Source: Candidatus Woesearchaeota archaeon
GTDB taxonomy: Archaea > Nanobdellota > Nanobdellia > Woesearchaeales > JABGXB01
Direction of reading: 5' to 3'
Assembly: GCA_018675975.1 (NCBI GenBank)
Contig: JABGXB010000003.1
Location: 267,821-331,820, forward strand
Length of the DNA: 64,000 bases
Made by a program: the position numbers and the translations under genes. Positions within the stretch are counted from its first letter, which is position 1; each line of letters begins with the position of its first letter. Shown here piece after piece: positions 13,874 to 44,039 of this stretch. Under the pieces are notes generated by a model. The model was not told where the DNA came from, did no database searches, and saw only the letters and a list, made by a program, of their open reading frames with translations.

Positions 13874-15754
13874 TTAATTAAATATTTTAGAAACTTCTTT
13901 TGAAACAATAGTTGGATTAACTTTACCTTTTAATTTGCCCATTAAAATACCCATTAATTTTCCACGATTAATATTAGAATCAGATTTCATTTCAAAATCA
14001 ATAATTTCTTTTATTTTTTTAATTGCTTCACCATCATCTAATAATTTATATTTTTTAGAAATAATTTCAATAGTAGAATTAGTATTTAAAAATTCTAAAA
14101 TAATATCATAAATACAAGCGTGATCAATTTTATTTTCATTCCACAACTCAAAAATAAATCTAGCCATATCTAAATCCCAATTAAACTCTAAATTATCTTT
14201 ACGTCTTAATTCTTTTGGAATGGATAAAAACTTTTCTGCAATACTTGATGATTTTAAATTTTTATTATCTTTAATTAATTCTTCAAAAATATTATTAGAA
14301 TAATCTTTAGAAATATCACGCGCAAGATCTTCACCTAAACCTAAAGATTTATATCGGTTAATTTTATCATCAATTAATTCAGGTAATTCTATATTACTAA
14401 TATCAGGAATAATACTTTTAACATCAGTTTCAGGATACATTCGAGAAGATCCTGGAATCGGTCTCATATAAACACTTGTAAACGTTTTCACTACAGCTCT
14501 AACTTCATCAATTACCCCAATTTTAATTGCCATTCTTGCACGTCTATATGCAGCAAATAAAGCTAAAATAACTTTTTCTTTTTTATCTGCACAAATTATG
14601 AATGCATCTTTTTCTTTACAATTTAATTCATCAATAATATGATTAACTTGAAAATTTTCAATTCCGTATTTTGGCAATTCATCACTATGAAAAATACCAC
14701 CAACACCAGATTCAACTTTTGCATAATCAGATAATTCAGAACCCAATCTACGATTATCTTGAATTTCACATCCTAAAAAACCTTTAAAACAATTTAATTT
14801 AATACCATAAACAACTCCATTATTATCTAAAGCAGAATTAATTACCTTGCTATCAGAGTTCTTAAAAATATCAGATAAATCAAAAATTTCTACATCTTCA
14901 AAATCATTTATATTATCATATTCAACTAATTCTTGATGACCATTAAACATTTTACTTAATTCATGTTTAATTTTATTAAGATTTATTTGTCTTAGAATTT
15001 CACTATCTATAATAATTTGTAAATTTTTTAAATCTTGAGCACCCTTTAACTCAACACGATTTCCACCATGAATTGAAATATTTAAATCTTGTCTAATTGT
15101 ACCAAGACCTCTTTTAACTTTATTCGTACTTCTAAGTAGCATTCCAATTTGGCTTGCAATTTGTTTTGCATGTTCAGGTGTTTTAATAGAAGCATCAGTT
15201 GAAATTTCAATTAAAGGAATACCTTGTCTATCTAATCTATAATCAATAGAATTATTATTTTTTGCTATATCCTTACAAGCATCTTCTTCTAATAAAATTG
15301 AATCAATATTTACATTTCCTATTTCATTTTTTAAAATACCATCACTTGCAATTAAACTAGTTCTTTGAAAACCACTAGTAACTGAACCATTAGCAATTAT
15401 TTTTCTCATTACTTCAATTCGTTTTACAATTTTTGCATTAACAAGTTTTGAAAAAACTAAAACAACATTTAATGCATCTTTATTTAAATCATGAGGAGGC
15501 TCCTCATCTAATTCCACAGAACAAGTTGTATCATAATAACCCTGATAATTATAAATTAAATTTTTTTGCATTTCAACTTTAGCTGCCACATCCATATCCC
15601 CTGACTCACCAGAACTAGCATGCATTTTTCTAGTTATTATAAAATCAGGCTCATCATCTCGCAATATAGAAGGACAATTACAAAACAATTTATTAGTATT
15701 TAATTGCTGATGAATTTCAATACCAATTTTTAAATTTAATTTATTATAATCCAT
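13874..15754 (-). CDS. gatE: Glutamyl-tRNA(Gln) amidotransferase subunit E
   Basis: The 626 aa protein starts with the GatB/E-type block GIEIHQQLNT..KLFCNC and ends in a YqeY-like tail. It lies directly downstream of gatD on the same strand. Confidence 0.95.
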   Translation of the reverse strand: MDYNKLNLKIGIEIHQQLNTNKLFCNCPSILRDDEPDFIITRKMHASSGESGDMDVAAKVEMQKNLIYNYQGYYDTTCSVELDEEPPHDLNKDALNVVLVFSKLVNAKIVKRIEVMRKIIANGSVTSGFQRTSLIASDGILKNEIGNVNIDSILLEEDACKDIAKNNNSIDYRLDRQGIPLIEISTDASIKTPEHAKQIASQIGMLLRSTNKVKRGLGTIRQDLNISIHGGNRVELKGAQDLKNLQIIIDSEILRQINLNKIKHELSKMFNGHQELVEYDNINDFEDVEIFDLSDIFKNSDSKVINSALDNNGVVYGIKLNCFKGFLGCEIQDNRRLGSELSDYAKVESGVGGIFHSDELPKYGIENFQVNHIIDELNCKEKDAFIICADKKEKVILALFAAYRRARMAIKIGVIDEVRAVVKTFTSVYMRPIPGSSRMYPETDVKSIIPDISNIELPELIDDKINRYKSLGLGEDLARDISKDYSNNIFEELIKDNKNLKSSSIAEKFLSIPKELRRKDNLEFNWDLDMARFIFELWNENKIDHACIYDIILEFLNTNSTIEIISKKYKLLDDGEAIKKIKEIIDFEMKSDSNINRGKLMGILMGKLKGKVNPTIVSKEVSKIFN

Positions 15755-15759
15755 TTTAA

Positions 15760-17058
15760 TTATCTTAAAAAAGAATCCTTATTTATATGATTATCAATTT
15801 CACCCTTTAAATTTTTATTATATAATTCAAGAATTTGACTCAAATCTATATTTTTACTCAATAAATAAGCAATTTTACAAAAAGCAGTTTCTATAGTTGT
15901 ATCCATTAAATGTCCAGCAATATTTAATTCGCTTAATTTTCTACCAGTAGAATAAACATTTTGATTAATTCTTCCATAAATAGTTTGTGCTGTAAAAATA
16001 ATTGGAATTTTTTGACTCATATTTTTTATCCAATCATAAAATTTATTATGATTTATTGTAAAGTTATCAATTTCATTAATTGGCATATTCCCAATACCAA
16101 CAGAACATATAATTAATGCATCAAAATTATTATACATTTCAAATTCATCTATATGCATATTGGGATGAATATATAAGATTCCAATTTTTAAATTAGAATT
16201 TAATTTAATTAATTTATTTTCAATTTTCTTATAATAATTATATTTTTCAAATTCATATGTTTTTGAAATTTTATCTTCAATCACATTTACACTTGCAAGT
16301 TCAATAGAATTAATTTGTCGAAACGCACCTCTAAAAGTTGTATGCATTTTTCTTACATTAACACCTTTTAAAATGTGACAAATATTATCTGATTCATTTT
16401 TATGCATACAAATAAAGATTCCTGATTTATCATATGTAGATAAAAATTTACTTGCTGCAGCCATATTAATATAAGCATCACTACTTCCCCTATCACTACT
16501 TCTTTGAGCACCAACAATTACAACTGGAATAGTTAAATCCTCAAACATAAAAGAAAGTGCCGCACTAGTATAATGTAAAGTATCCGTACCATGAGTAATT
16601 ATAACACCATCATAATGATTTTCAACTGCTAACTTTATTTCTTCTGCAATTAAATTATAATGATCAAATCTCATATCTTCAGACCACATTGCAGCTAATA
16701 ATTTAGTATCAAAATTACAATATTTATGCATTAAGCTAAACATATTTAATAATTCTTCAGGAGTTATTTTACTAATTACACCACCTGTTGCATAATCAAC
16801 CTTTGAAGCAATCGTTCCACCAGTATGTAATATTAAAATATTTTTCTTATCAGACGAATGAGAAAATAAATTTTCAATTTCTTTTGAATTATTTTGACTA
16901 TTTTTTTTTATAATTTCAAGTTTAGAACTTGCAGGTAAAGAAATATTATAACCTGAAGATAATTTTAAAACAATAAAATCTCCATCTTGTTTAATAAAAA
17001 TACCTTCATATAATTTACCATCATTTTCAATTTGTATAAAATCTTTAAATTCTGCCAT
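15760..17058 (-). CDS. gatD: Glutamyl-tRNA(Gln) amidotransferase subunit D (asparaginase-like)
   Basis: Asparaginase-type motifs HTGGTIAS and ITHGTDTL, with the archaeal GatD N-terminal domain. Confidence 0.95.
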   Translation of the reverse strand: MAEFKDFIQIENDGKLYEGIFIKQDGDFIVLKLSSGYNISLPASSKLEIIKKNSQNNSKEIENLFSHSSDKKNILILHTGGTIASKVDYATGGVISKITPEELLNMFSLMHKYCNFDTKLLAAMWSEDMRFDHYNLIAEEIKLAVENHYDGVIITHGTDTLHYTSAALSFMFEDLTIPVVIVGAQRSSDRGSSDAYINMAAASKFLSTYDKSGIFICMHKNESDNICHILKGVNVRKMHTTFRGAFRQINSIELASVNVIEDKISKTYEFEKYNYYKKIENKLIKLNSNLKIGILYIHPNMHIDEFEMYNNFDALIICSVGIGNMPINEIDNFTINHNKFYDWIKNMSQKIPIIFTAQTIYGRINQNVYSTGRKLSELNIAGHLMDTTIETAFCKIAYLLSKNIDLSQILELYNKNLKGEIDNHINKDSFLR

Positions 17059-19402: not shown

Positions 19403-21691
19403 TTATCCAAAATAACTTTTAATATTATTTTTTATTTCTCTTGCATTAGAAAATTTAAATTTATCTTTAATTTCCTCATATGCTTTTTCAATTTCATCAT
19501 TACTACTAGGTCCAACCCTTTTTAATGCATCATTAAAATCATCCATTGTTACAGATTCCGAATCCATATTTTTTCTCAATGCACTAATTCCAGACTCCCT
19601 ACATAAACTTTGTAAATCTGCACCAACATAATATTCTGTTTCTGTTGCTATAAATTCTAAATCTACATCTTCAGATAATTTCATATTTTTTGTATGAACT
19701 TTTAAAATATTTAATCTTGCTTCATAATCAGGCGTCCCAACTAAAATAATTCTATCAAATCTTCCTGGACGTAATAAACCATTATCAATTATATCTGGTC
19801 TATTAGTTGCAGCAATAATCACAACATCATGTAATTCTTCTAAACCATCCATTTCAGTAAGTAAAGTATTTACAATTCTTTCTGTAACTTTTGAATCTGT
19901 TGTATTTGTTCTTTTTGGTGCAATTGCATCAATTTCATCAAAAAATAAAATACTCGGACTTGTTTCACGTGCCTTATTAAATAATTTTTTAATAGTTTTT
20001 TCAGACTCACCAACCCATTTACTAATTACATCACTACCTTTAACTAAAATAAAATTAGCTTTTGATTCATTAGCAACTGCTTTAGCAAGTAATGTTTTTC
20101 CAGTACCTGGAGATCCATAAAGTAAAATACCTCTTGGTGGATTAATTCCAATTCGTGAAAAACTTTTTGGATGTTTTAATGGCCATTCAACTGCTTCTTT
20201 CAAATCGTTTTTAACATCATTTAAACCACCAATATTTTCCCAACTAACTTTTGGAACTTCAATAAATATTTCTCTAAGTGCACTAGGTCTAACAACTTTT
20301 AATGCATCTTTTAAATCATCTTCACTAACAACTAATTTTTTTAATACACTTTCAGAAATTGGTTCATCTTCATTTAATTTAATTTCAGGAAGTAAACGCC
20401 TCAAAACAATCATTGCTGATTCTTTTACTAAACTACTCAAATCAGCACCAGTAAAACCATAAGTTTGATCTGCAATTGTTTTTAATATATCAGGATTTGT
20501 AAGTGGCATATTTCTTGTATGAATTTTTAAAATATGTAATCTACTATTTGCATTTGGTGCACCTATATGAATTTCACGATCAAATCTTCCAGGCCGTCTC
20601 AATGCAGGATCTAAAGAATTAACTAAATTACTTGCAGCAACTACAATAACTTTGCCTCTTTTATTTAATCCATCCATTAATGTTAATAATTGAGCTACTA
20701 CTCTTCTTTCAACTTCACCTTTACTTTCTTCTCTTTTAGTTGCAATTGCATCAATTTCATCAATAAAAATAATACTTGGGGCATTTTTTTCTGCTTCTTC
20801 AAAAATCCCTCTTAGATTTTTTTCACTTTCCCCATAAAACTTTGACATTATTTCTGGACCATTAATTAAATAAAAACTAGCATTTGTTTCAGCTGCAACA
20901 GCTCTTGCAAGTAATGTTTTACCAGTTCCAGGAGGACCATGTAATAAAACTGCTTTTGGTGCTTCAATACCTAAATGATCAAATAATTCAGGATGTTTTA
21001 GAGGAACTTCAACCATTTCTCTAATTTTTTTAACTTCATCTTCTAAGCCACCAATATCTTCATAACTAATATCATGAATATGTGAACTATCTTCAACTTC
21101 ATCAACACCTTGTGATTGAAATTCTATTATAGTATCATTTGTAATTATAACTGGCTTATTATTAGGTTTTGTAGATATAATAAAATATTTCATATCTGAA
21201 TGAAATAAAAATTTATTTTGCATATCATCAATCAATCTATAAATTTCATTATAATGTGGACTACCTGATAATGTTTTTCTTCTTCTTTTACTCCCACCAA
21301 TACTTACAACATCACCTTTGTAAATTGGTCTACCCAAAAGACCTTGTTTAAATAAATTTGCGGGAGCATCAATAATAATATTTTTTCTTGCAGGGGCAAT
21401 TACAACTTTTTCAGCAGATTTAACATCAGCCTTTCTAACTTTTACACTTTCACCTAAACTAGTTCTTGCATTACGCCTTACAATACCATCAATTCTAATT
21501 ACAGGCCTACCTATGTCCCCAGGATATGCCCTATCAACAATAGCAACTGTTTTTCTCGTACCCTCAATTTCAACAATATCGCCAACTTCAATATCAATTT
21601 GTTTCATTAAATTATAATCTATTCTAACTATACCCTTATTAACATCATCTTCAATTGATGCAATTACATCCAACTGTATTTCTTTTGACAT
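19403..21691 (-). CDS. cdc48: CDC48/VCP-type AAA+ ATPase
   Basis: The N-domain is followed by two AAA modules, each with a Walker A motif ([16 protein letters not shown]), Walker B motifs ([16 protein letters not shown]), and RPGRFDR second-region-of-homology motifs. Confidence 0.95.
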
Positions 21692-25181: not shown

Positions 25182-25856
25182 TTAATCTCGTCTTATTACA
25201 TTAATATCTTCTATTCTACGAGTCATTGGAATTGGAACTGCTGCATCCAGCAATTCAATTACAACTTCTTCTTTAAATAAATCTACTCTTGTAATTTTTG
25301 CTCTTTCCTTTTTGAAAGGACCAGCTATAATTTCTACTATATCTCCTTTTCTAATGTCAACTTCTTTTTTCTCAGTAGATATTAAATGTAAAACTTCTTT
25401 TTCAGAAATTGGTGTTGGCAATACATTTCTTGCATATGGTATTCTAAATGCAGCCTTATCAACTTCATATTTGTCAGAAGCTTCAATAAAAATAAAACTT
25501 TTAATTCCGTGTGGAATAATAATTGAAAAAATATTTAATTCTTTTCTCTTTGCATTTGCTGTTAAAAAATCAGCCACAGTTTCTTCTCTATTGGCAGTAC
25601 ATTTTAATGCAAAAATAGGATTATTAATTACATTTTCAACTTCTTTTGAATTGTTTTCATTATTTTGATTATTTGAATTATCTTTAGGTTCTTGATATAC
25701 TTCTTTACCTGCAAGTGGACCTTGAGGTTCACTTTTTTTTTCATTATTATTTTTAATTACTATAGTAGAAGACTTACCGTCACTATCTGCTTTATCTAAT
25801 TCATTAGATAAATCATCTACACTGAAATTTTCAAACTCATCATCATATCCTGACAT
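25182..25856 (-). CDS. spt5: Transcription elongation factor Spt5 (archaeal NusG) with acidic N-terminal extension
   Basis: The NGN domain starts near IFALKCTANRE and the KOW motif is GDIVEIIAGPFKKERAKITRVD. About 80 extra N-terminal residues are rich in Asp, Glu and Asn. Confidence 0.85.
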   Translation of the reverse strand: MSGYDDEFENFSVDDLSNELDKADSDGKSSTIVIKNNNEKKSEPQGPLAGKEVYQEPKDNSNNQNNENNSKEVENVINNPIFALKCTANREETVADFLTANAKRKELNIFSIIIPHGIKSFIFIEASDKYEVDKAAFRIPYARNVLPTPISEKEVLHLISTEKKEVDIRKGDIVEIIAGPFKKERAKITRVDLFKEEVVIELLDAAVPIPMTRRIEDINVIRRD

Positions 25857-29273: not shown

Positions 29274-31034
29274 ATGAATTATCAAATGAAGAATTTTTCC
29301 ACTGAGCAAACTGAATTATTAAGATCATTTCTTTTTACAGCTCCACATAGTAATGTAAGTTTAATTTATCCACAACAATTAGTTGCAGGTGAAGAACTAG
29401 CCCCATTAATTTCAGCATATTCAAGAAGCAATCAACCACTTCAAGAAAGAGTATTAGAATTTGTTGATAAACAAAAAAATACAGAAGCTAAAGCACTATT
29501 ACCACATTTACCAGAATTAATGAAAACATTTAGAAATGAAGATGGTTCATTAAAAATTAGTAAAAAAACAAGAAACTTTTCTAAAAAATGGGTTCTTGCG
29601 CACGGTCACAGTTCAATAAAAGAAATGAATTCTATTTTTGGATGTGTTGAAGGAATTTCAGACATTTGTGGAAAATTAATTACTGGACATCCTTTAGCCC
29701 ACCCTCAAGTTAAGTCATCAAGATATATTTCTTTTGAAGATACATTAGATATGGCATTAGTAGATCCAGACATTCAAAACTTATCTTGTTCAAATGAAAT
29801 TATAGAACATTTAAAAGAATTAAATACAGAATATCTTAATGCAACTAAATATTTAGCAAATGCAGTATTTAAATCTGAAGAAACTGATCAAATAAGAGAA
29901 TTTTTAACTCGAGACTCAGTATTAGATATGCATGGTGAAAAATTATTTAATCGTGCTAAAAAAAAAGATCCAGAATTAGTAAAAACTGACACATTAATAG
30001 AAGAATTAAAATCACAGGCTTATGAAAATATAAATAGTGATGAGTATGTAATGGGACAACTTGAAAAATTTGTTCTTGATAGAAGTAGAGTATATTTACC
30101 TGGTTCAACTAGAACAAGTTTAGGTTTTATGATTGATGGTAGAACATGTGAAGAAATCATTACAACATTATTAACTAGTCCTTTAATAGAAGCCCAAAGT
30201 TTTGGTAATCAAATTTGGACTGAAACAAAAAAAATCTCACCTGTTTTATTAGGAGATCAATCCCATATTAAAAAAGATGAATGGAAATATGAGTTAGATA
30301 CGGACTTTAGAAAAGAATTAGCTACACGATTAGATTATATTGTCATGCACTCTGAACAAAAATTTGGAAGAGTTTATTCACCAAGCTTTGTACATTCAAG
30401 AGGAGAAGATACAAGATCTGCAGTTATGGCTGCATATAAATATAGTGATTTTTCTTTTGATGATTTAATAGAACAATTAAAAGAAAAAGATGTTAAATGG
30501 ATTTTAGATAGAACTCACGAACATAGAAATAAATTTGATCAATTACATGAAAGTGGTGGTCATGGTGGTATGCTTACTGAAATGACTATGCCATATCATG
30601 GTTATAGAGATATGTTTAGACATAGAAAAGGAGCAAGATCTAATCAATTATATACAACAGTTCACGGTTTTGAAAATGTTGAAATTTTTAATCATTTTGA
30701 TATAAATTCAAGATATGAATTATTAATGAATAAAAATAATGAATTATTTAGAAAAGCAGCAAAAGAAAATCCCCATGCTGCACAAAAAGTTGTTGCCTTT
30801 GGTCAATTATGTAGAGCAGCACACAGTTGGTCATTAGAACAAATTGGATATATTGCAAGAATAAGAGCGAATATTGAAACCGGAAATATTAGTTATGTAA
30901 AAACTGTTCATCAAATTGTAGATGGTGTAAAAAGATTATCACCACAATTAGCATCAAAAATAAATTATAATCAAGAAATGTTTCCAGAACATATTTGGAA
31001 AGAAGGTTATGATTTATTTAGAAGTAAAAAATAA
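29274..31034 (+). CDS. thyX: Long-form (tandem-fold) ThyX-like flavin-dependent thymidylate synthase
   Basis: Motifs YSRS and HGHSSIKE (compare ThyX HGHxxxxEH) in the first half. The first half reads GHPLAHPQVKSSRY (SxRY kept, RHR lost). The second half reads FRHRKGARSNQ (RHR kept) and AHSWSLEQIGYIARIR. An AGGTG Shine-Dalgarno lies at 29264-29268. Confidence 0.7.
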   Translation: MNYQMKNFSTEQTELLRSFLFTAPHSNVSLIYPQQLVAGEELAPLISAYSRSNQPLQERVLEFVDKQKNTEAKALLPHLPELMKTFRNEDGSLKISKKTRNFSKKWVLAHGHSSIKEMNSIFGCVEGISDICGKLITGHPLAHPQVKSSRYISFEDTLDMALVDPDIQNLSCSNEIIEHLKELNTEYLNATKYLANAVFKSEETDQIREFLTRDSVLDMHGEKLFNRAKKKDPELVKTDTLIEELKSQAYENINSDEYVMGQLEKFVLDRSRVYLPGSTRTSLGFMIDGRTCEEIITTLLTSPLIEAQSFGNQIWTETKKISPVLLGDQSHIKKDEWKYELDTDFRKELATRLDYIVMHSEQKFGRVYSPSFVHSRGEDTRSAVMAAYKYSDFSFDDLIEQLKEKDVKWILDRTHEHRNKFDQLHESGGHGGMLTEMTMPYHGYRDMFRHRKGARSNQLYTTVHGFENVEIFNHFDINSRYELLMNKNNELFRKAAKENPHAAQKVVAFGQLCRAAHSWSLEQIGYIARIRANIETGNISYVKTVHQIVDGVKRLSPQLASKINYNQEMFPEHIWKEGYDLFRSKK

Positions 31035-31066
31035 AAAAAAAAGAATAATAAAAAAGAGGTTAGTAA

Positions 31067-31696
31067 ATGAATTTAAGTATATATAGTGAGATTCCAATGC
31101 ATCAAGTTATTGAAGAAGTTAGAAAATCCCCTATGTTAAAATCTGATACTCAATTTCCTTACAAAAATGCAAATATTAGTTTACGTAATGTCGGTATGGG
31201 TGAAATTAATCCAACAAGTTTATATGCATTAAAAGCTAATTTGGATTTTCAAAAAAACTTAAGAGAATATATATTAAATAGATTTGGTTTTGATACATTA
31301 AGATTAAGTTCTGGTCTTATATTAGAAAATAAAGATGGGGAGCGTCAAACATTAATACCTCCTATAGTTGAAGTATCAGAAAGAGAAGTTAAGTTCATTC
31401 CACAAAAAGATGAATTATCATATGAAAATTCATATAAAATAAAAATACCGTGTTTACTTGATGGTATTCATCGCGCACTATGTGCAAAAGAATTAGGTAT
31501 AGATTTAAATGTAATTTTTATTTATGATTCAGATACCAATTATCCTGTTTATGCACATCCAAATGAATGGGATTTAGTTAAAATTTGTGATAGTATACCA
31601 AAAGAAAAAAGTCAAAAAAAAATGTATTTAAGAGATGATCATTCTAGTTTGTATAAATCATTTGCACACTTAGGTTCAAGTGGTCTTAGAAAATGA
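31067..31696 (+). CDS. ParB/sulfiredoxin-fold (ParB N-terminal domain-like) protein
   Basis: Signature LIPPIVEV...IPCLLDGIHRALCAKELGIDLNVIFI, matching the DGxHR core of ParB-NTD-like domains. Its stop overlaps the next start (ATGA). Confidence 0.6.
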   Translation: MNLSIYSEIPMHQVIEEVRKSPMLKSDTQFPYKNANISLRNVGMGEINPTSLYALKANLDFQKNLREYILNRFGFDTLRLSSGLILENKDGERQTLIPPIVEVSEREVKFIPQKDELSYENSYKIKIPCLLDGIHRALCAKELGIDLNVIFIYDSDTNYPVYAHPNEWDLVKICDSIPKEKSQKKMYLRDDHSSLYKSFAHLGSSGLRK

Positions 31697-32850
31697 GTAA
31701 TTTAGTTTTAGTTGAAGGAATAAGTGGAGCTGGTAAAAGTACAGCAATTAATTTTATTCAATCTTATCTTTCAACATTCAATATTCAAAGTCACACATTT
31801 AATGAACCCGGTCATATGCGAGATGAAATTAAAAAATATCATAATAGAGAAGACAGAGATCTTCAATTAGAATTTGATCATTATGTTTTATCCAGAAAAG
31901 TTGATTTACATCATAAAGTAATGCCAACTATAAAAAATCACCCAAAGGATACTATCCTCATTGATCGAAGTTGGATTTCTACAATGGTTTATCAACAAAC
32001 AGAACAATGTCCAATGATAAATATTCGTGATTATCATTCCTTTTATCCCAAACACAATTTAGCATTACTCTTAATTTGTGATCCTGAAACTGCATATCAA
32101 AGAATTTTAAAAAGAAAAGAAACTCAAGGAATAGAATTAAGTACATCTGAAAATCCAAAAAGAATTGCTGAACTTAGAAAAAGTTATATTGAAGCATTTG
32201 ATTTAGTAGATTATTCTGTAATTATTAATACTGATGGAAGTGAAAATGCAGTTAATTGTATTTTAAAATCTTATATGAATAAATTATTAGGAATTAAAGA
32301 AAAAAAAATTGTTTTTTTAGATAAAGATGGTACTTTAGTTGACAATTCTAAATATCCAGAAGTAATTCCAACGGATGAAATTCTTTTTGCAGATACATTA
32401 GAAGGATTATATAAATTAAAAAGTGCAGGATATGAATTTCATATGATTTCTTCTCAACCATGGGTTGCTAAAGGTCAATTAAGTTTAGATCAAACAAATG
32501 AAATTTTTGAAAGTGTTATAGAACAATATAAAAAATATGGAATTGAATTTACTGGATATGGTTTTTGTGAACATCATAGAAGTGATAATTGTCCAGATAA
32601 AAAACCAAATACAGGTTTATTAGAACAAATAGCAACTCAACAAAATATTGATATTTCTCAAAGCTTTTTTATAGGAGATATGGAATCGGATATTGAATGC
32701 GGTTATAATTTTGGATTACAAACTGGATTAGTAACTAAATATTCAAATGCAAAAACAATAGATAATTTATCTCAACAAAGATTTAAAAGAACTCCAAATT
32801 ATACTGCAATTAATTTGAATGAAATTGCAAATCAAATAATTGAAAATTAA
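31693..32850 (+). CDS. Fusion protein: thymidylate-kinase-like P-loop kinase (N-terminal) plus HAD-IIIA phosphatase (C-terminal)
   Basis: The N-terminal half has VEGISGAGKST, NEPG and LIDRSWISTMVYQQ (Tmk-like). From about residue 205 it has FLDKDGTLV, ISSQP, CEHHRSDNCPDKKPNTG and IGDMESD (GmhB/PNK-3'-phosphatase-type HAD). Confidence 0.75.
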   Translation: MSNLVLVEGISGAGKSTAINFIQSYLSTFNIQSHTFNEPGHMRDEIKKYHNREDRDLQLEFDHYVLSRKVDLHHKVMPTIKNHPKDTILIDRSWISTMVYQQTEQCPMINIRDYHSFYPKHNLALLLICDPETAYQRILKRKETQGIELSTSENPKRIAELRKSYIEAFDLVDYSVIINTDGSENAVNCILKSYMNKLLGIKEKKIVFLDKDGTLVDNSKYPEVIPTDEILFADTLEGLYKLKSAGYEFHMISSQPWVAKGQLSLDQTNEIFESVIEQYKKYGIEFTGYGFCEHHRSDNCPDKKPNTGLLEQIATQQNIDISQSFFIGDMESDIECGYNFGLQTGLVTKYSNAKTIDNLSQQRFKRTPNYTAINLNEIANQIIEN

Positions 32851-33025
32851 TATTTGTTAATTATATTAATTAAAAAAACTAAATTGTTTTTTTTTTGTAA
32901 AAAGAGTTCGAACGTTAATTCCTTACATTTGAATTTAATGAATATATAAAAACAAAAAAACAATATAATTCACTAAGCAGATAAAACAAAACATTATAAA
33001 GCAAATGTATCTATAAAAATAATAC

Positions 33026-33041
33026 ACACTAGGAATAGTGT
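33026..33041 (+). promoter_or_regulatory. Candidate NrdR box 1 (palindrome acactaggaatagtgt)
   Basis: A 16 bp site with perfect inverted ACACTA/TAGTGT arms that resembles the NrdR-box consensus as I remember it (acaCwAtATaTwGtgt). It lies just downstream of a TATA-like ctataaaa (33011-33018) in the 304 bp region upstream of nrdR. Confidence 0.5.
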
Positions 33042-33058
33042 CACAGCAAATATTAATA

Positions 33059-33074
33059 ACACAATATACGGGGA
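33059..33074 (+). promoter_or_regulatory. Candidate NrdR box 2 (weaker: acacaatatacgggga)
   Basis: The left arm and AT core match the remembered consensus and the right arm is degenerate. It starts 33 bp after box 1, about three helical turns, as in tandem NrdR boxes. Confidence 0.3.
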
Positions 33075-33154
33075 GTTAATAAATTTTTAAACCAGAAAAA
33101 AATACTAAATTAGCTTTAGCTCTGTAAAATAAAAAACAAATAAAAAATAAAAAA

Positions 33155-33604
33155 ATGAAATGCCCACATTGTAATTCAGATGATTTGAAAGTAAATGAAA
33201 CAAGAGAAACAGAATCAAATAGTTTTAGAAGAAGAAGAGAATGCAATAATTGTGAAGAAAGATTTACTACATATGAAAAAATTCAAGAATTATTAATTAG
33301 TGTAAAAAAAGAAAGTGGAAAATTAGAAAATTATACTAAAGAAAAATTAGAAAAAAGTTTTTTGATTGCTTGTAATAAAAGACCAATAACAAGAATTCAA
33401 ATATTAAAAATTATTGAAAACATTGAAAATAAAATAAGAAATAATTTTAAAAATGAAATTTCATCTAAGACATTAGGTGAATATGTAATGGAAGAATTAA
33501 AAATTTTAGATCCAATATCATATATTAGATATGCTTCAGTATACAAAGATTTTGATGATTTAGATAAATTTAATCAAGAATTAATATTATTAAAGGTGAA
33601 TTGA
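33155..33604 (+). CDS. nrdR: Transcriptional repressor NrdR
   Basis: N-terminal zinc ribbon CPHC...CNNC with ERFTTYE, followed by an ATP-cone. About 150 aa. It sits immediately upstream of the RNR gene. Confidence 0.9.
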   Translation: MKCPHCNSDDLKVNETRETESNSFRRRRECNNCEERFTTYEKIQELLISVKKESGKLENYTKEKLEKSFLIACNKRPITRIQILKIIENIENKIRNNFKNEISSKTLGEYVMEELKILDPISYIRYASVYKDFDDLDKFNQELILLKVN

Positions 33605-36600
33605 ATGGAACAAAGTATTGAAACAAAACGAACTGGTATAAAAGTTAAAAAAGTTTTTTGTAGTGATAATATAAGCCCATTTGAAACTGTTGAATTTGAA
33701 AACAGATCAAGTGTGATAAAAAATAGAGATGGTTCTATATTATTTGAAATAAATAATATTCATGCTCCAAAAAAATGGTCGCAAGTTGCCGTAGATATAA
33801 TGGCACAAAAATATTTTAGAAAAAGTGGAGTTCCACAATATGATGAAAATCAAAATGAAATTAAAGATGAATTTTCAAATATAATTACAGGTTCAGAAAC
33901 AGATATTACTCAACCAATAAAAAGATTAACTGGATGTTGGAGACATTGGGGAGAAAAATATAATTATTTTGATACGCAACAAGATGCAATTAATTTTGAA
34001 CAAGAAATACAATATATGTTATTACATCAAATCGCTGCACCAAATAGTCCACAATGGTTTAATACGGGACTTAAATGGGCATATAATATTTCTGGAAGTG
34101 CACAAGGACATTATTATGCTGAACATGAAACAGGTGAAATTAAATTATCTGAGGATGCATATTCAAGACCTCAACCGCATGCATGTGCGGATTATTATAC
34201 ACAAGTGTATACTGATAAGGGTACAATGTATATTGGAGATATAGTTGAAAATAATTTAACTAATATAAAAGTATTTGATGGAGAAAAATATGTAAAAGTT
34301 CTTGCAATCAAAAACAATGGAAAAAAAGAAGTGTTTAAAATTCAATTAAAAAATGGAAATTATATTAAATTAACTCAAGATCATTTAGTGCTATCATCAC
34401 AAAAAAGAAAAAAAAATGGTGGAAATTATAACTGGAATTATGTAAAAGATGTAAAATTAGGTCACAAATTACAACAACCATTAATTCTAGATATTAAAGA
34501 AAAAAATGTATTTAGTGATGATTTAGCAAAAGCAAGATTAGCCGGTTGGATAGTTGGAGACGGATCAGTTGGAATTTATGAAAATGTAATGAGATTGGAA
34601 ATTATTTCTATTAAAGAAGAAGAATTTGAATCAATAATAAATGATATTCAAGAAGTATTTGGACAAGAAGTTAATTTTTGGATTAGTAAATTTAAAACAA
34701 AAAACGAAAATTTAGATGGTAAAAGAATTCATTTAGCAGGTAAAAAAATACATAAATTAATTGAAGACTATGATTTACTAAAATCTTCATTTAATGCAGA
34801 AGTACCTCAAAAAATAATTAATGGGTCACCACAAGAAAAAAGAGAATTTTTAAAAGCCTTATTTCAAGCAGATGGTTGTGTCAGAATTAGAAAAGATGAA
34901 AATAGAAATTCAGGAGATGTGTGTTTAACTACAATTTCAGAAAATCTTTCATTTGGAGTTTTACAATTATTAAATTCATTAGGTATTTATTGTAGAATTA
35001 ATAAATATAGTGATAAAAGAGAAAATCGAAAAGATGTTAATCAAGTTATAGTATCTTATGGTAGTGCAAGAGAACAATTTCAAGAACAAATTTCTTTTAT
35101 ATGTTCTCAAAAAACCGAAAAATTAGAATTATTAAATAAAATTATAACAAAATCAAAAACACTTCCATTAATAAGAGAAGAAACAATTATTTCAATTGAA
35201 TCTGAAGGCATTAAAGATGTTTATGATATTCAAACAGAATCTTCAAAATTTCTTGGAAATGGAATTGTAATACATAATTGTTTTATTCAATCAGTTAAAG
35301 ATGATTTAGTTAATCAAGGTGGAATATTTGACCTTTGTACAAGAGAGGCAAGAATATTTAAATATGGTTCTGGAACTGGTTCAAATTTTTCACAATTAAG
35401 AGGTCAGTCTGAAAAATTATCAGGTGGTGGAAGATCTTCAGGTATGATGTCATTTTTAAAAATATTTGATGTGGCAGCTGGAGCAATTAAATCAGGTGGT
35501 ACAACAAGACGTGCAGCAAAAATGGTTTGTCTTGATTTGGATCATCCAGAAATTATTGAATTTATTGATTGGAAAGCAAATGAAGAAAAAAAAGTTGCTA
35601 ATTTAATTACTGGTTCAAAAAATTCAAAATATCATTTACAAAAAATATTAAAAGAAGCAAGTTCAAATTCAAATATAGAAAAAAATCCAAAATTAAAATC
35701 AGCAATTAAAGAAGCTATTGAACAAAATATTTCTTTAAATTATATTGATAGAGTTTTAAAACTTGCAAATCAAGGAATAACTGAATTTGAAACTCCCGAG
35801 TTTGATAATCATTTTGAAGGTGAAGCATATTCTACAGTTAGTGGACAAAATTCAAATAATTCAATAAGAATACCAAATTCATTTTATGAAGCTGTTCATA
35901 AAGACTTAGATTGGAATTTAAAAAATAGAACTGATGGAAAAATTTCAAAAACTGTAAGAGCAAAATGGCTTTATGATAAAATTGGACAAGCTGCTTGGGC
36001 TTGTGCAGATCCTGGTGTTCAATTTGATACGACAATTAATGAATGGCATACATGTCCAAAAGATGGAAGAATTAATGCAAGTAATCCTTGTTCTGAATAT
36101 ATGTTTTTAGATGATACTGCATGTAATTTAGCTAGTATTAATTTAATTCATTTTATTAATGATAGTGGACATTTTAATGAAGAAAAATTTGCTCATGCAT
36201 GTGAACTTATGACAATTGTTTTGGAAATTTCAGTTACTATGGCTCAATTTCCAAGTGATGAAATTGCAAAAAGAAGTTGGGAATATAGAACATTAGGTTT
36301 AGGTTTTGCAAATTTAGGGACATTACTCATGGTTAAAGGAATTTCTTATGATAGTGATGAAGCTAGAAGTATAGCTGGAGGAATTAGTGCCATAATGTGT
36401 GGAACTGCTTATGAAACATCTGCTAAACTCGCAAAACATCTAGGACCTTTTAACAGATATGAACATAATAAAGATGACATGTTAAGAGTTATTAGAAATC
36501 ATAGACGTGCTGCATATAATGTTTCAAATGAAGAGTATGAAAAATTAGAAATTACTCCAGTTGGCATTGATGAAAATTTATGTCCAAATAATATTTTACA

Positions 36601-38146
36601 AAAAGCTAGAAATTCATGGGATAATGCACTTGAACTTGGACAAGAATATGGATTTAGAAATGCACAAGTAACTGTTATTGCACCAACCGGAACTATTGGA
36701 CTTTTAATGGATTGTGATACTACAGGAGTTGAGCCAGACTTTGCAATTGTTAAATATAAAAAACTTGCAGGCGGTGGTTATTTTAAAATTGTAAATCATT
36801 CAGTTATTAAAGCATTGAGAACTTTAGGTTATGAAAAAGATCAAATTATTGATATTAAAAAATATTGTATAGGTCATCAAACATTAGTGGGTTGTCCAAC
36901 CATAAATCATAAAATTTTAAAAGATAAAGGATTTGATGAAGAAAAATTAGAACTTATTGAAAAACAATTAGAAACTGCATTTGATTTGAGTTTTGTTATG
37001 AATAAAAATATTTTAAGTGAAGAATTTTTAAAAAAATTAGGATTTAGTGATGAACAATTAAATTCTGAAATGTTTGATTTACTAGAAGAATTAAAATTTA
37101 CAAAAGAACAAGTTGATATTGCAAATGAATATGTTTTTGGAACAATGACAGTTGAAGATGCTCCATACTTATTAGAAGAACATTATTCAGTTTTTGATTG
37201 TGCAAATAAATGTGGAAAAAAAGGTAATAGATATATTGACACTTATGGACATATTAATATGATGGCAGCAGTTCAACCTTTTATTTCTGGTGCAATTAGT
37301 AAAACAATTAATATGGATTCAGAAGTTAGTGTTAAAGATATTTTAGATGCTTATGAAGCTAGTTGGAAATTAATGCTTAAAGCAAATGCATTATATAGAG
37401 ATGGATGTAAATTAAGTCAACCATTAAATACTGCTGTTTTTGAAAGTGAATACAATTTAAATTTATCTGAAGAAGATATTGATGAAACAGTTGATTCAGC
37501 AGCAATTCAACAACAAATTCAAACAATGAAAGCAAATCAGTTGCCGAGAAAAAGAGGTGGTTTTGTTCAAGAAGCAACTGTTGCAGGTCACAAAATATAT
37601 TTAAGAACTGGTGAATATAATGACGGAAAATTAGGTGAAATTTTTATTGACATGTATAAGGAAGGTGCTGCCTTTAAAGCACTAATAAATTGTTTTGCAG
37701 TTGCAATAAGTAAATCTCTACAATTTGGTGTTCCTTTAGAAGAATTTGTTGAACAGTTTACATTTACTAGATTTGAACCGGCAGGTTTAGTAACTGGACA
37801 TGAATATATTAAAAATTCTACGTCAATATTAGATTATGTATTTCGTGTTCTAGGCTATGAATATTTAGGTAGAGATGATTTAATTCATGTAAAACCTAAA
37901 AGAAAACCACTAGACATTATAGAACATGAAGATGATCCAAGAGATAAACATAAAACACTAGATAGTTTTTCTAATAGAAAAAATGTAGAAGAGACTAGAA
38001 ACGAAATGCTTTTTAAAAAAATTAATACTGCCAAATCAAGAGGATATACTGGAGAAGCATGTGGTTCTTGTGGTAGTATGAGAGTAAAAAGAAATGGAAG
38101 TTGTACACTTTGTGAAGATTGTGGTTCTACTAGTGGTTGCAGTTAG
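33605..38146 (+). CDS. nrdJ: Class II (adenosylcobalamin-dependent) ribonucleotide reductase, interrupted in frame by one intein
   Basis: Blocks [24 protein letters not shown] active-site region, [27 protein letters not shown], and a C-terminal Cys-rich tail CGSCGS...CTLCEDCG. The protein is 1513 aa including the 365 aa intein. Confidence 0.9.
34184..35278 (+). mobile_element. Intein with LAGLIDADG homing-endonuclease domain inside nrdJ
   Basis: It begins with Cys (PQPHA|CADYY) and ends with HN followed by Cys (GIVIHN|CFIQSV). The two LAGLIDADG blocks are [11 protein letters not shown] (34538-34570) and [11 protein letters not shown] (34850-34882). Removing the insert restores the conserved HACFIQSV extein sequence. 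Confidence 0.85.
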
Positions 38147-40023: not shown

Positions 40024-41961
40024 TTAATTGTTATATTTATTAAAAATAAAAATACCAGAACCTAAAATAAATATACTAAAAAAGATAAAAATATACCAAA
40101 TTATATTAACCATTTTACTATTTGTACTATTTTGAATTTCATTTACAATAATATTGCTATTTAATGAATCTTCATTTGAATTGATATTAATATTATTTAA
40201 TTCTAAATTTAAATTTAATAATTTTTTTTCCATTTCATTTCTTTTTGATTCCATTTCTAAATTAATTTTATCAATCTTATTTTTTAATTCATTATTCATA
40301 TTATTAACATCCTTTGAATTATCAACAATATTTGAATTATCATTTAAGCATTTAATTACATTAATTGAAATTGATTTTTTCAATAATTCATTATTATTTT
40401 TATTAAATGCTTGTAAAATAATATCACGTTCCCCTAATTTATTATTAATATTATAATTAAAACTAAAAGATTGATCATCTCCTTCATCTAAACTAAATTC
40501 TTTATTTAATTCAATATCATCATCAGTTAATTGTAAAGTTAAGTCTTCAATATCTCTACTACCAACATTTACTAAATCTCCATTTATTTTTATACCATTA
40601 AATGAACATAAATCTATTTCTTTTGTATAAAATAAATTATCAATAATTAATTCTTCTCTATCTTTTTTTATTTTTACTCTGATAGTAAAATTTGCTTCAT
40701 GAAAATAACTCTCATTATCCAATACACTAGCATATAAATTGAAATTTGATCTTTCTTCTTTATTATCAAATGGTATTATTGATTCATCAAAATCAATATC
40801 AATAGTTTCACAATCATTTTTTACAATATCTAATTCTTCTTCATCAATATCAATTCTAAACATTTCACCATATAATCTTATATTTTCTAAATCTGTATTT
40901 TTTACATTACAAATTTTAACTTCAGCTGATATTTGATCCCCTACTTTAAAATCATCATCATAGGCTCTACCTGAATTATCAAAACGTTCTTTTTTATCAT
41001 TTCTATGTAATTTTACAAATTCAAATTCAAGTGGATTTTTAGGATTTACATTAATTTTTCCATCAATTGTAATTACTTCATTTAAAACATTTGTTAATTC
41101 TAATTGAAAACTATTTTCACCATAATTTAATTGAGGATTAAAAATAATATCATTAACTTCCAGTCCATTAAATTTCCATTTATAATTTACAATAAAATTA
41201 CTATTTGTTAAATCTAAAAATTGTTCATATAAGTTAAATGAACTTAAATCCTCTTCATTTAAATTAATAGTAATATTATTATTTAATGATAAAAAATCAC
41301 TATGTGTTTTATTTGTTACAATAGTATATATTTTCCCATTAGGAATATTATTACTATCATTTTTTTGAAATAAAACATGCAAATAAAGATTCTTATTTTG
41401 ATAATTAATTAAATCACCATCATTTAAAATAATTGTAAGTTTTTTATCACCGCCTTGATAAAAAGGATAAACATTCCAATCATCTTTATTTAAACCAAAT
41501 TTTTCATAAGTAAAATCATCATTTGAATTTAAAATTAAAGCATTCCATAAAAAATTCATTCCACTATTAATATATCTACTAATCAATTCTGAATATATTA
41601 TTTCATTTGAATCATTAGGTCTATCAATTACATTTATAGTTTCTTGTTTAATTTTATATTGACCTAAACTATTTTTTAAAATAAATGTAATATTATGAAT
41701 TCCACTATTATGATATACATGATTTATATTATTTAAATTATAATGTTTTAATTCATTTGTACCAAAATCAACTATTGAATAATCTAAATTAAAACCGCTT
41801 TGAGTTAAAGTATTTAATGTAAAATTAAAAGGCTCATTTACATAAATAGTTGTAGGTAATTCCACAGTATAATCCATACCATTTTCAAATACACCATTTA
41901 CAGAAATTAAACTAATTGATATAAAAAATATTAAAACTAATAATTTATTTATTATTTTCAT
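40024..41961 (-). CDS. Large surface protein (signal peptide, beta-rich ectodomain, coiled coil, C-terminal TM anchor)
   Basis: N-terminal signal segment LLVLIFFISISLISVNG and C-terminal TM segment IIWYIFIFFSIFILGSGIFIF. It shares a ~150 aa module with the upstream paralog. Confidence 0.6.
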   Translation of the reverse strand: MKIINKLLVLIFFISISLISVNGVFENGMDYTVELPTTIYVNEPFNFTLNTLTQSGFNLDYSIVDFGTNELKHYNLNNINHVYHNSGIHNITFILKNSLGQYKIKQETINVIDRPNDSNEIIYSELISRYINSGMNFLWNALILNSNDDFTYEKFGLNKDDWNVYPFYQGGDKKLTIILNDGDLINYQNKNLYLHVLFQKNDSNNIPNGKIYTIVTNKTHSDFLSLNNNITINLNEEDLSSFNLYEQFLDLTNSNFIVNYKWKFNGLEVNDIIFNPQLNYGENSFQLELTNVLNEVITIDGKINVNPKNPLEFEFVKLHRNDKKERFDNSGRAYDDDFKVGDQISAEVKICNVKNTDLENIRLYGEMFRIDIDEEELDIVKNDCETIDIDFDESIIPFDNKEERSNFNLYASVLDNESYFHEANFTIRVKIKKDREELIIDNLFYTKEIDLCSFNGIKINGDLVNVGSRDIEDLTLQLTDDDIELNKEFSLDEGDDQSFSFNYNINNKLGERDIILQAFNKNNNELLKKSISINVIKCLNDNSNIVDNSKDVNNMNNELKNKIDKINLEMESKRNEMEKKLLNLNLELNNININSNEDSLNSNIIVNEIQNSTNSKMVNIIWYIFIFFSIFILGSGIFIFNKYNN

Positions 41962-41972
41962 TGTACCTCAAT

Positions 41973-44039
41973 TTAAATATAAACTAATAAAATAAGTCCA
42001 AATATTAACATCAATACAACACCAATTGCTATAATTAATAATATTGTTTGTTTTTTTTGTTCTGATTTATTTAAATTATCTTGTAAATCATTATCTAAAT
42101 TTATGTTTTGATTTTCTAATAATAATTTTTTATATTCACTAATAAAATCATCATTATTATTTTCAACACCATTTAATTCATTTAATAATTTTAAATTCTT
42201 TTCATATAAATCTTGATCAGTTTGAATATTATTTGAACAATCATTTAATGAAATATCTAATTCTTTATAGTCAACTATATAATTATCCCTATATACTTCT
42301 GCAAAAAATTTATACTGTCCAATGGATGCAGAATTTGGAAAATTAAAATTTGTGAAAGCACTAAATTCATTATCATTTTTATAATCAATATCGAAATCTT
42401 TTATTGATTCAAAATTGAATTGCTCTGAATAAAATCTAACATGCCCATTTTCATCATTATCACCAATATTAAATATTAATGCAGATAATGAAATTGCTTT
42501 ATTATCAAAACAATTTTGTACTACAGTTGGAGTTACTAAAAATTTTTTGAATAATAAATCATGATTTTTTCTATCTACTTTTAATTTAACTGTAAAATTA
42601 TCTTCTTGAAAATAATCTAAATCATCTCTACCTTCAATATTAATAAACATATTAAATGTTTTATCTTCAGCATCATAAGGAATGTGATCTTTATCAAATT
42701 TAACTGAACGTACTTCACACTCATCTTCTGATAATGTAAAATCTGATTTCTCATCATCATCTAAATCACTACCATCATCAATATCTTTTATTATAGCACT
42801 AATTGCAATATCTTCAATATTAATATCTGAATTACTATCATAATCATTACATACTTTAATTTCTACACTAAAATCTTGACCTGGCTTAATATCTTTTGAA
42901 TATCTTTCTCCACTATTTCTAATTCTATCTGATTTGTCATTAACAATTACTTTTACTCTATCAATTCTTAACATTTTTCTTTGAATCGGTTTAATATCTG
43001 CTTCAATCACTTTACCATTAAAAGATAATTTAATTTCACCCAATAAATCAATATCTATTGGACGACTTGAACTTGCATGAATATTAAATGTTTTATTTTC
43101 TAATTCATTTAATGCAAAATTAGTTTCAAAATTACTATATTCAATAAATGAATCAAAAGAACTAATATCTAAACCAATATTTTCTAAATTTGATTCACCA
43201 GTATTTTTAACAGTGAAATTAAAATCAAATTCAGATTCTAATCCACTAATATTAATTTGAATTTCATTAGGTATAATTGTTAATTCCTGTATTTTTTCTC
43301 TTACTTCAATATTTGAAATTTGATAATTTTTATTAAAATTAAATTCTGACTGATCTACATTTAAATCGTATTTATACAAACCGCTAACTAAATCATTACT
43401 AATAAAAACTTCAAAACTTAAATTTTTCACTTCAGATTTATTTAATAAAATTATTTTCTTTTCAACATCTAAAGGAAAAAAACTTGATGTTTTTAATAAA
43501 TTATTAAAATTAATTTCAACTTGAGTATCATAATTTGATTGACTAATAAATTCAAATTCAATAGTATTTGTTTTACCCTTTACTATTTTTTTTGTTATTG
43601 CCTTTACATCAAATTGTGTATTTCTAGAAATATCTAAACTAATTGGCAATAATGTTTGTTCAGATTTACTATCTGTTGCAATTATTGTCCCATTATATTT
43701 ACCATAAGTAGGATTATTTGATAAATCAATAAAAAAATCAACTGATTTTTGTCCATTAGCATCAAAATTTCCTAATTGTGCATTTACACCATTTAATTCA
43801 ATAGCTAAAAATTCACCATTAGCATTTGATAAAACAAGTCCACTAAGTGCAATATTTACATTTGTTGAATCTAAATTTGTAATTTTAAACTGACTATTAA
43901 CTTTAGATGTTCTAAGTCCATTACTTAAATCACTTAATTCTATACTTTCTTTGTCAAAATTAGGTACTGCATTACTAAATGCTGAAACTAATGTTGCAAA
44001 TATAATCAAAAATGCAAATAAATGCGTTAATTTTTTCAT
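41973..44039 (-). CDS. Large surface protein, paralog of 40024-41961
   Basis: N-terminal signal segment LTHLFAFLIIFATLVSAFS and C-terminal TM segment ILLIIAIGVVLMLIFGLILLVYI. The shared module aligns as KPGQDFSVEIKVCN... against KVGDQISAEVKICN... Confidence 0.6.
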   Translation of the reverse strand: MKKLTHLFAFLIIFATLVSAFSNAVPNFDKESIELSDLSNGLRTSKVNSQFKITNLDSTNVNIALSGLVLSNANGEFLAIELNGVNAQLGNFDANGQKSVDFFIDLSNNPTYGKYNGTIIATDSKSEQTLLPISLDISRNTQFDVKAITKKIVKGKTNTIEFEFISQSNYDTQVEINFNNLLKTSSFFPLDVEKKIILLNKSEVKNLSFEVFISNDLVSGLYKYDLNVDQSEFNFNKNYQISNIEVREKIQELTIIPNEIQINISGLESEFDFNFTVKNTGESNLENIGLDISSFDSFIEYSNFETNFALNELENKTFNIHASSSRPIDIDLLGEIKLSFNGKVIEADIKPIQRKMLRIDRVKVIVNDKSDRIRNSGERYSKDIKPGQDFSVEIKVCNDYDSNSDINIEDIAISAIIKDIDDGSDLDDDEKSDFTLSEDECEVRSVKFDKDHIPYDAEDKTFNMFINIEGRDDLDYFQEDNFTVKLKVDRKNHDLLFKKFLVTPTVVQNCFDNKAISLSALIFNIGDNDENGHVRFYSEQFNFESIKDFDIDYKNDNEFSAFTNFNFPNSASIGQYKFFAEVYRDNYIVDYKELDISLNDCSNNIQTDQDLYEKNLKLLNELNGVENNNDDFISEYKKLLLENQNINLDNDLQDNLNKSEQKKQTILLIIAIGVVLMLIFGLILLVYI

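Follow-up and report, generated by a model that had tools for sequence, protein, structure and literature searches.

The locus described here lies in a 64,000-nucleotide stretch of contig JABGXB010000003.1 (hereafter the window), in which a gene for the transcriptional repressor NrdR stands directly before nrdJ, the gene for a class II ribonucleotide reductase, and is preceded by two predicted NrdR-binding sites (NrdR boxes) close to TATA-like elements. A first-pass annotation made from the DNA letters alone had drawn attention to this arrangement, and we followed it up by profile searches, matrix scans and comparison with other archaeal loci. The features on which the analysis turns are the following.

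32993–33000, plus strand: TATA-like element ATTATAAA, ending 25 nt 5' of box 1; candidate core promoter by positional conservation
33011–33019, plus strand: second TATA-like element, cTATAAAAA (ctataaaa at 33011–33018), ending 6–8 nt before box 1
33026–33041, plus strand: predicted NrdR box 1, ACACTAGGAATAGTGT, matching ACACWANNNNTWGTGT; 11.2 bits
33059–33074, plus strand: predicted NrdR box 2, ACACAATATACGGGGA; 11.6 bits, 6th of 63985 positions
33155–33604, plus strand: nrdR, 149 residues, Zn-ribbon and ATP-cone transcriptional repressor, identified by TIGR00244, Pfam and alignment with a Protein Data Bank (PDB) structure
33595–33599, plus strand: GGTGA, Shine-Dalgarno-like, inside the end of nrdR and 5 nt before the nrdJ start codon; read from the sequence
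33605–38146, plus strand: nrdJ, class II (B12-dependent) ribonucleotide reductase, 1513 residues including an intein
34184–35278, plus strand: LAGLIDADG intein, 365 residues, in the N-terminal part of nrdJ; Pfam Intein_splicing and LAGLIDADG_3

The product of nrdR scored 149.2 bits on the equivalog model TIGR00244, above the cut-off of 124.65, and Pfam recognized both a Zn-ribbon (Zn_ribbon_NrdR, PF22811; 58.5 bits against a cut-off of 27.2) and, following it, an ATP-cone (PF03477; 59.4 bits, residues 49–135). The protein begins with MKCPHC, and its CxxC motifs are CPHC at residues 3–6 and CNNC at residues 30–33 (C3/C6/C30/C33). Residues 1–146 aligned over the full length with the structure of Escherichia coli NrdR (PDB 9fxk, E=1.8e-30), and the match to Streptomyces coelicolor NrdR had E=1.2e-22. 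The residues known as DNA contacts (PMC9110341), R17 and RRRR 25–28, are kept, RFTTYE is also present, and the outer nucleotide site is retained as YIRYASVY (ASVY residues). The description of the protein in the first-pass annotation as a typical NrdR, with a CPHC/CNNC Zn ribbon plus an ATP-cone, was thus borne out.

Within the window, nrdJ is the sole ribonucleotide reductase gene. Its product contains the Pfam domains Ribonuc_red_2_N, Ribonuc_red_lgC, and TSCPD, and scored 1720 bits on NF005736 and 564 bits on TIGR02504; a Pfam scan of the protein found no ATP-cone. The TGA stop codon of nrdR (33602–33604) abuts the ATG of nrdJ (33605), so that nrdR directly precedes nrdJ as had been noted, and this junction points to a single nrdR–nrdJ transcript with coupled translation.

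The intergenic region between the stop codon of the preceding gene (tmk-HAD, ending at 32850) and the start of nrdR (33155) spans 32851–33154, the 304 bp given in the annotation, and has a GC content of 19%, as compared with 23% for the window. Box 1 consists of perfect 6-bp inverted arms, ACACTA and TAGTGT, around a non-palindromic GGAA centre. The 16-bp palindrome reported at this place was therefore correctly located, but only 12 of its 16 positions are palindromic. Of the six conserved positions (C4, A6, A8, T9, T11, and G13), box 1 has C4, A6, T11, and G13, and the centre is GA rather than AT. Box 2 has C4, A6, A8, T9, and G13, and C replaces T11. The two boxes are 33 bp apart from start to start, which corresponds to a 17-bp spacer (NrdR operators typically have 15–16 bp and tolerate 14–18), and they retain G and C at key positions despite the low GC content of their surroundings.

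To score the region, a weight matrix was built from 10 boxes of E. coli and S. coelicolor for which binding had been measured (Table 1 of PMC13584703) and their reverse complements; the matrix was trained on bacterial boxes only and was here applied to archaeal DNA. All box pairs with spacers of 14–18 bp were scored, and 1000 first-order Markov sequences of 64 kb served as the null. The results showed that: (i) the pair at 33026/33059 was the top pair of the 64 kb with 22.8 bits, as compared with 13.4 bits for the runner-up, and only 3 of the 1000 null sequences reached 22.8 bits anywhere over their whole length, (ii) the pattern ACACWANNNNTWGTGT matched the 64 kb once, at box 1, against 0.02 matches expected, and (iii) when box 1 was held fixed and partners were sought at spacers of 10–29 bp, a positive score was obtained at spacer 17 only, that is, for box 2. 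The second site proposed at 33059–33074 is thus the only positive partner of box 1, and the same scan gave neither a 'box 0' upstream of box 1 nor a third box after box 2. As positive controls, the matrix gave pairs of 26–29 bits immediately 5' of nrdR in the bacterial loci L007, L009, L019, and L028; in loci without a box pair near nrdR the maximum was approximately 5–16 bits. Elsewhere in the window, no further pair with spacers of 14–18 bp exceeded 13.4 bits near other possible regulon members (thyX-like, tmk, NT5C, NUDIX), and with spacers of 12–29 bp none exceeded 16.0 bits, all of these lying inside open reading frames (ORFs). The search near thyX and tmk that the annotation had proposed thus gave no further boxes within the window.

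It could be argued that the boxes are chance palindromes of AT-rich DNA without any function, as the genome has 23% GC and the single boxes, at approximately 11 bits each, come no higher than 6th and 8th among the positions of the window. This explanation is strongly disfavoured and in our opinion hardly credible, since the null sequences so rarely matched the pair score, the pair falls within those 304 bp, the single region in which one would look for it, and 11 other archaeal loci have homologous pairs. Thus, matrix scoring confirmed the box pair as real and beyond chance at the level of sequence.

The 11 further archaeal loci with a box pair 5' of nrdR or nrdJ are L004, L013, L015, L021–L025, L029, L030, and L032, labelled as Woesearchaeota, Nanoarchaeota, Micrarchaeota, and one Methanobacteriota. 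In each of them the pair is the top-scoring one of the locus (15–33 bits), has a spacer of 15–16 bp and lies immediately 5' of nrdR or nrdJ. All 12 archaeal sites have C4 and G13 in both boxes; A3, T11, and T14 of box 1 and A6 of box 2 likewise do not vary. The box 1 form ACACTA-nnnn-TAGTGT with a non-AT centre (ACACTAnnnnTAGTGT) is common to the window, L021, L022, L023, and L025, and box 2 of L025 shares C11 with the window. In L021, L022, L023, and L025 (named Woesearchaeota, Nanoarchaeia or Nanoarchaeota), nrdR stands directly before nrdJ, and a methionyl-tRNA synthetase gene (metG) is nearby in all four. L024 has nrdR beside thioredoxin and nrdJ, and L029, which was found via NrdJ homologs, has nrdR–nrdJ beside Nop10, eIF2-alpha, and L44e.

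An nrdJ without an adjacent nrdR was found, again via NrdJ homologs, in L030 (beside eIF2-gamma), L032 (beside aS21 and aEF-1-beta), and L031. The strongest box pairs that we saw are those of L030 (2879–2926; 30.8 bits) and L032 (3342–3389; 32.7 bits), and because these stand at an nrdJ that has no adjacent nrdR, NrdR would have to be encoded elsewhere in the two genomes. No box pair was found in L026 or L031, the latter being labelled Diapherotrites and having nrdJ without boxes. L027 has the gene order nrdD-nrdG-nrdR; no pair was found in its locus DNA, which begins inside nrdD, so that the region 5' of the operon is not covered.

The position of the boxes relative to the promoter was then compared between loci. 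A TTTAWAWA element (with at most one mismatch) ends 18–26 nt 5' of box 1 in 10 of the 12 archaeal loci and in 6 of 8 independent lineages; the chance probability of this TATA-to-box distance is approximately 2e-4, or approximately 2e-3 when the choice of the distance window is allowed for. In archaea, the TATA box has its centre near −26. Given this position and the shared distance, box 1 would begin within a few bases of the predicted transcription start, and box 2 would cover approximately +33 to +49. The first-pass annotation had placed both boxes just 3' of the TATA-like ctataaaa. That string does lie at 33011–33018, but only ATTATAAA at 32993–33000 stands at the distance shared by the 10 loci, and for this reason it may be the operative TATA element and is the candidate core promoter. 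The more general proposal, that the boxes sit on an archaeal-type TATA promoter, is supported by the comparison as a prediction, and on the sequence every candidate layout puts NrdR on core promoter DNA.

We consider it likely that the window contains an autoregulated nrdR–nrdJ operon of a DPANN (Woesearchaeota-like) archaeon under the control of a canonical NrdR, in which the repressor loaded with dATP and ATP blocks RNA polymerase. DNA binding by the NrdR tetramer depends on dATP and ATP (PMC9110341): with ATP only, bacterial NrdR forms oligomers that do not bind DNA, and with ATP plus dATP it assembles into a tetramer, which occupies both boxes and kinks the DNA (PMC9110341, PMC12176259). 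In the archaeon, a rise in dATP would lead NrdR carrying ATP and dATP to form the tetramer, the two Zn-ribbon pairs of which would bind and kink both boxes, box 1 being roughly over the transcription start and box 2 over approximately +33 to +49. The TATA-binding protein (TBP) and transcription factor B (TFB) might still bind, and RNA polymerase recruitment, promoter opening or promoter escape would be blocked. With ATP only, NrdR would form higher oligomers unable to bind DNA and the operon would be transcribed; repression of nrdR–nrdJ would thus constitute negative feedback from dATP. Since NrdJ without an ATP-cone lacks overall dATP feedback at the enzyme level, NrdR would supply it at the level of transcription.

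Several observations weigh against this reading. Each box has one deviation, G8 in box 1 (where A9 for T9 is allowed by the regular expression) and C11 in box 2, and because of these both boxes fail the published expression C.[AT].[AT][AT].[AT].G by one position. In bacteria, mutations at T11 weaken binding; the A6/T11 double mutations abolish it, T11 having been tested in that work only together with A6 (PMC13584703). Among the 12 archaeal loci, a spacer of 17 bp was found in the window only. Position 15 of NrdR, which is the DNA-specificity residue D15 in S. coelicolor NrdR (PMC9110341), is E in the window protein; the change is conservative, and E15 is likewise found in the NrdR of L021–L023, L025, L029, and P0082 and of the bacterial L028. 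The boxes lie 80 nt 5' of the nrdR ATG, and further TATA-like strings occur at 33076–33091 in the A/T-rich leader. Scans with the window NrdR gave 20 genome and 21 metagenome loci with a maximum identity of 47%, so that no close relatives were available for promoter footprinting and box 2, spacer 17 and the two TATA candidates have no footprint. To our knowledge, no archaeal NrdR has been studied experimentally.

The deviations in both boxes, the effect of the A6/T11 double mutations and a spacer one base pair above the range of the other 11 archaeal loci would also fit a decaying operator, that is, a genome under reduction in which NrdR has been kept but its site has weakened, regulation having become leaky or lost. 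We find this improbable. C4 and G13 are intact in both window boxes, and these are the critical positions in bacterial NrdR boxes, of which two are needed and in which the central AT is dispensable (PMC13584703); accordingly, the centre substitutions A8C and T9G hardly change binding (PMC13584703). Four bacterial NrdRs bind and repress well with spacers of 15–17 bp (PMC12051234), so the spacer of the window is within the working range. In addition, the C11 of box 2 recurs in L025, and the NrdR ORF is unbroken and retains every key motif.

The boxes could also be functional while another TATA element is the operative one, in which case NrdR would block the binding of TFB and TBP and not the recruitment of polymerase. 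There are two candidates for such an element: the proximal TATAAAAA (33012–33019), with which box 1 would lie between the TATA and the start, and TTAATAAA/TTTTTAAA just after box 2 (33076–33091), with which box 2 would lie on the TFB-recognition element (BRE). Several TATA-like 8-mers are present in this region of 19% GC, and MAFFT pairs the proximal element (33011–33019) with the relatives' TTTATAAA, although only via a 17-nt gap; L013 and L015, moreover, carry a perfect TTTATAAA in the linker between the boxes, 22 nt before the ATG. On the other side, the distal ATTATAAA is the only element at the distance that 10 of the 12 loci share, and L021–L025 do not conserve the strings that follow box 2. 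On balance we hold this alternative to be unlikely, while allowing it some weight, and retain the layout in which NrdR on the boxes downstream of ATTATAAA would block RNA polymerase.

The sequence between box 2 and the nrdR ATG (33075–33154) is a very A-rich stretch of 80 nt, the corresponding stretch in the relatives L021 and L022 being 148–162 nt. No Shine-Dalgarno sequence before nrdR and no Rfam match were found in 33075–33154. The layout of L013 and L015 is different from this long-leader layout of the window and L021–L025: the perfect TTTATAAA lies within the box linker (882–896 in L013, 3970–3984 in L015), and box 2 abuts the ATG, as in a leaderless mRNA. The boxes thereby flank the TATA element, which NrdR would sandwich. 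Directly 5' of the TATA TTTATAAA, at the position of the BRE, L021, L022, and L023 have the motif CAGATAA. Its counterpart in the window is GCAGATAAA at 32977–32985, displaced by 7–8 nt from ATTATAAA. The motif may be a lineage-specific BRE or the site of a second regulator.

Whether DPANN archaea have re-set the operator onto their own promoters is, in our judgement, an evenly balanced question. Such a re-setting would comprise a TATA element ending 18–26 nt before box 1, a repressor lying over the start and the first approximately 50 bases (with the TATA in the linker in L013 and L015), and a lineage variant of the system, with a box 1 of the form ACACTA-nnnn-TAGTGT with G/C-containing centres, together with E15 in the protein.

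The host of the operon is archaeal, since archaeal marker genes flank nrdR–nrdJ on both sides: GatE (13874–15754), GatD (15760–17058), CDC48 (19403–21691; an AAA ATPase with 991 bits on TIGR01243), and Spt5 (25182–25856; NGN and KOW domains) on one side and NMD3 (59072–60133) on the other. The possibility that the contig is bacterial or candidate-phyla-radiation DNA was rejected on account of these markers. A partial protein with 100% identity to the window NrdR carries the NCBI name 'Candidatus Woesearchaeota archaeon'. The window is chromosomal, with five tRNA genes, Suf genes, and an encoded FtsZ.

The first-pass annotation had regarded NrdR as rare in archaea, in line with earlier papers that called it rare or absent there (PMC9110341, PMC12176259, 10.1101/2025.03.28.645925). 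This view is out of date, as Shahid et al. 2026 (PMC13584703) report that 22% of archaeal genomes have NrdR, against 77% of bacterial ones. The GC content at third codon positions (GC3) is 7.3% for nrdR and 7.9–9.3% for the nrdJ exteins, as compared with 9.1 +/- 2.5% in the remaining 52 ORFs. The NrdJ extein is 58–64% identical to the NrdJ of DPANN archaea (with the labels Woesearchaeota, Micrarchaeota, and Diapherotrites) and equally 58–64% identical to that of Bacteroidota, Ignavibacteria, and Kapabacteria; so close a resemblance between the domains implies that a transfer from one to the other took place at some time. A rough neighbour-joining tree of NrdJ, midpoint-rooted without an outgroup, set most of the archaeal sequences apart from those of Bacteroidota, Ignavibacteria, and Kapabacteria; with this rooting, the direction of transfer is not settled. 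For NrdR, the mean identity was 53% between archaeal sequences and 46% between archaeal and bacterial ones, and the window protein was 50% identical to Firmicutes NrdR and 52–53% to archaeal NrdR. In the neighbour-joining tree of NrdR, the archaeal sequences were loosely together, with a Megamonas sequence and a bacterial (FtsA-context) sequence intruding and the backbone unresolved. As NrdR is short and its tree has no resolved backbone, we claim no donor lineage.

These data bear on the idea that nrdR was acquired horizontally together with its operator logic. A recent, genome-specific acquisition of nrdR and operator from a bacterium would be in keeping with the far greater frequency of NrdR in bacteria (PMC13584703), with a window NrdR about as close to Firmicutes as to archaeal NrdR, and with the similarity of NrdJ to that of Bacteroidota and Ignavibacteria. 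It is nevertheless quite improbable, considering that the GC3 of nrdR and the nrdJ exteins equals that of the other ORFs, that nrdR–nrdJ with box pairs occurs in several DPANN lineages (with metG nearby in four loci), that the rough tree keeps most archaeal NrdJ sequences together and away from the bacterial ones, and that the TATA-to-box geometry is archaeal and common to relatives. Because the operon recurs in relatives and its GC3 equals that of the host, nrdR–nrdJ has, as judged from sequence comparison, long resided in this archaeal group as a shared feature and was not imported recently. An ultimate bacterial origin is plausible, with a transfer that would be old and shared; a recent or rare event is not supported, so that the proposal of the annotation is borne out only in part. 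The annotation had itself named a common and vertically inherited NrdR as what would speak against its proposal, and the recurrence in DPANN, the share of archaeal genomes with NrdR and the host-like GC3 largely agree with such a state.

The intein of NrdJ is inserted at PQPHA|C...HN|CFIQ, the boundaries being taken from the translated sequence. NrdJ homologs of approximately 1500 residues with the same Pfam intein domains are encoded by the DPANN metagenome-assembled genomes P0126, P0150, P0165, P0178, and P0182 and by one Kapaibacterium, P0192. That the same intein domains occur in DPANN and Kapaibacterium NrdJ may be a sign of the intein passing between archaea and bacteria of these groups.

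Directly 5' of nrdR, a same-strand cluster (29274–32850, plus strand) encodes ThyX-like, ParB-CE, and tmk-HAD proteins, an unusual dTMP-related set, in which the box-pair matrix scan of the window found no NrdR boxes. The ThyX-like protein (586 residues) is divergent, with 40 bits on Pfam Thy1 and 26.9 bits on TIGR02170, far under the cut-off of 87.9, and it had no match in PHROGs or PDB sequence searches. The ParB-CE domain protein is encoded at 31067–31696 (plus strand), and the last gene before nrdR, at 31693–32850 (plus strand), encodes a thymidylate kinase fused to a HAD-IIIA phosphatase. Ten consecutive T residues at 32887–32896, 37 nt 3' of the tmk-HAD stop codon, probably serve the upstream operon as its oligo-T terminator; if so, the nrdR promoter region would belong to a separate transcription unit. 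On the minus strand, the large ORF at 40024–41961 resembles the putative S-layer model PACE-CTERM only weakly, reaching 37 bits where the cut-off is 110, and the large adjoining ORF at 41973–44039 had no family match; the two likely encode surface proteins of the DPANN cell.

The closest known counterpart is the nrdRJ operon of S. coelicolor (PMC9110341; PDB 7p37), in which nrdR likewise directly precedes a class II nrdJ, the repressor has the same Zn-ribbon and ATP-cone architecture, and autoregulation operates via two 16-bp boxes over the promoter and start, as is predicted for the window. The S. coelicolor operon has a −35/−10 promoter, a 15-bp spacer between the boxes and D at position 15 of NrdR, whereas the window has an archaeal host with a TATA-type promoter, a 17-bp spacer, a GA centre in box 1, C11 in box 2, and E at position 15. 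Unlike that of S. coelicolor, the nrdJ of the window belongs to a long, TSCPD-containing subfamily of approximately 1150 residues and carries an intein. E. coli NrdR (PDB 9fxk, 9gex; PMC12176259, PMC13584703) shares with the window protein RRRR, R17, and an outer nucleotide site of the YIRFASVY type, and it requires two boxes, the number also present in the window operator; it controls three RNR (ribonucleotide reductase) operons and is encoded away from them, whereas the window nrdR adjoins nrdJ. Among archaea, nrdR directly 5' of ribonucleotide reductase genes is known from the haloarchaeal nrdR-nrdAB and nrdR-nrdBA clusters, which were taken as transfers from bacteria (Lundin et al. 2010, PMC3019208). 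Those clusters encode class I enzymes of Halobacteria and are in part on plasmids, whereas the window has a class II enzyme in a DPANN archaeon, and operators were not analysed in the haloarchaeal study (PMC3019208).

The mode of action predicted for the window NrdR has parallels among other archaeal regulators. MDR1, LrpA, and Phr are bacterial-type repressors of archaea whose binding sites lie at the TATA box or downstream of it and which keep RNA polymerase from joining TBP/TFB, which is the same mode as that predicted here. Their families (DtxR, Lrp, and ArsR-like) differ from NrdR, a Zn-ribbon/ATP-cone sensor of the dATP/ATP ratio.

Published NrdR-box surveys cover bacterial genomes only, and among the top full-text literature results we found no description of NrdR with DPANN, Woesearchaeota, Nanoarchaeota or Pacearchaeota. 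The repressor family and the operator type are thus known, and the host group is not described in the literature searched; the conserved archaeal promoter geometry is the sole element that may be new. The locus does not reveal a new kind of system, nor is it a one-off gene transfer, since related archaea share the feature. NrdR has been studied as a bacteria-specific regulator and an antibacterial target, but the two-box operator and the logic of a repressor sensing dATP and ATP appear, from the window and the 11 other loci, to be in place in genome-reduced DPANN archaea. This suggests that the deoxynucleoside triphosphate supply of DPANN symbionts is under transcriptional feedback control. 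The consistent position of the boxes relative to the archaeal TATA element offers a simple setting in which to study how the archaeal pre-initiation complex is blocked by a repressor of bacterial type, and if the operator geometry has indeed been re-set, the operon would be a compact, testable case of a bacterial nucleotide-sensing repressor acting on the archaeal basal transcription machinery.

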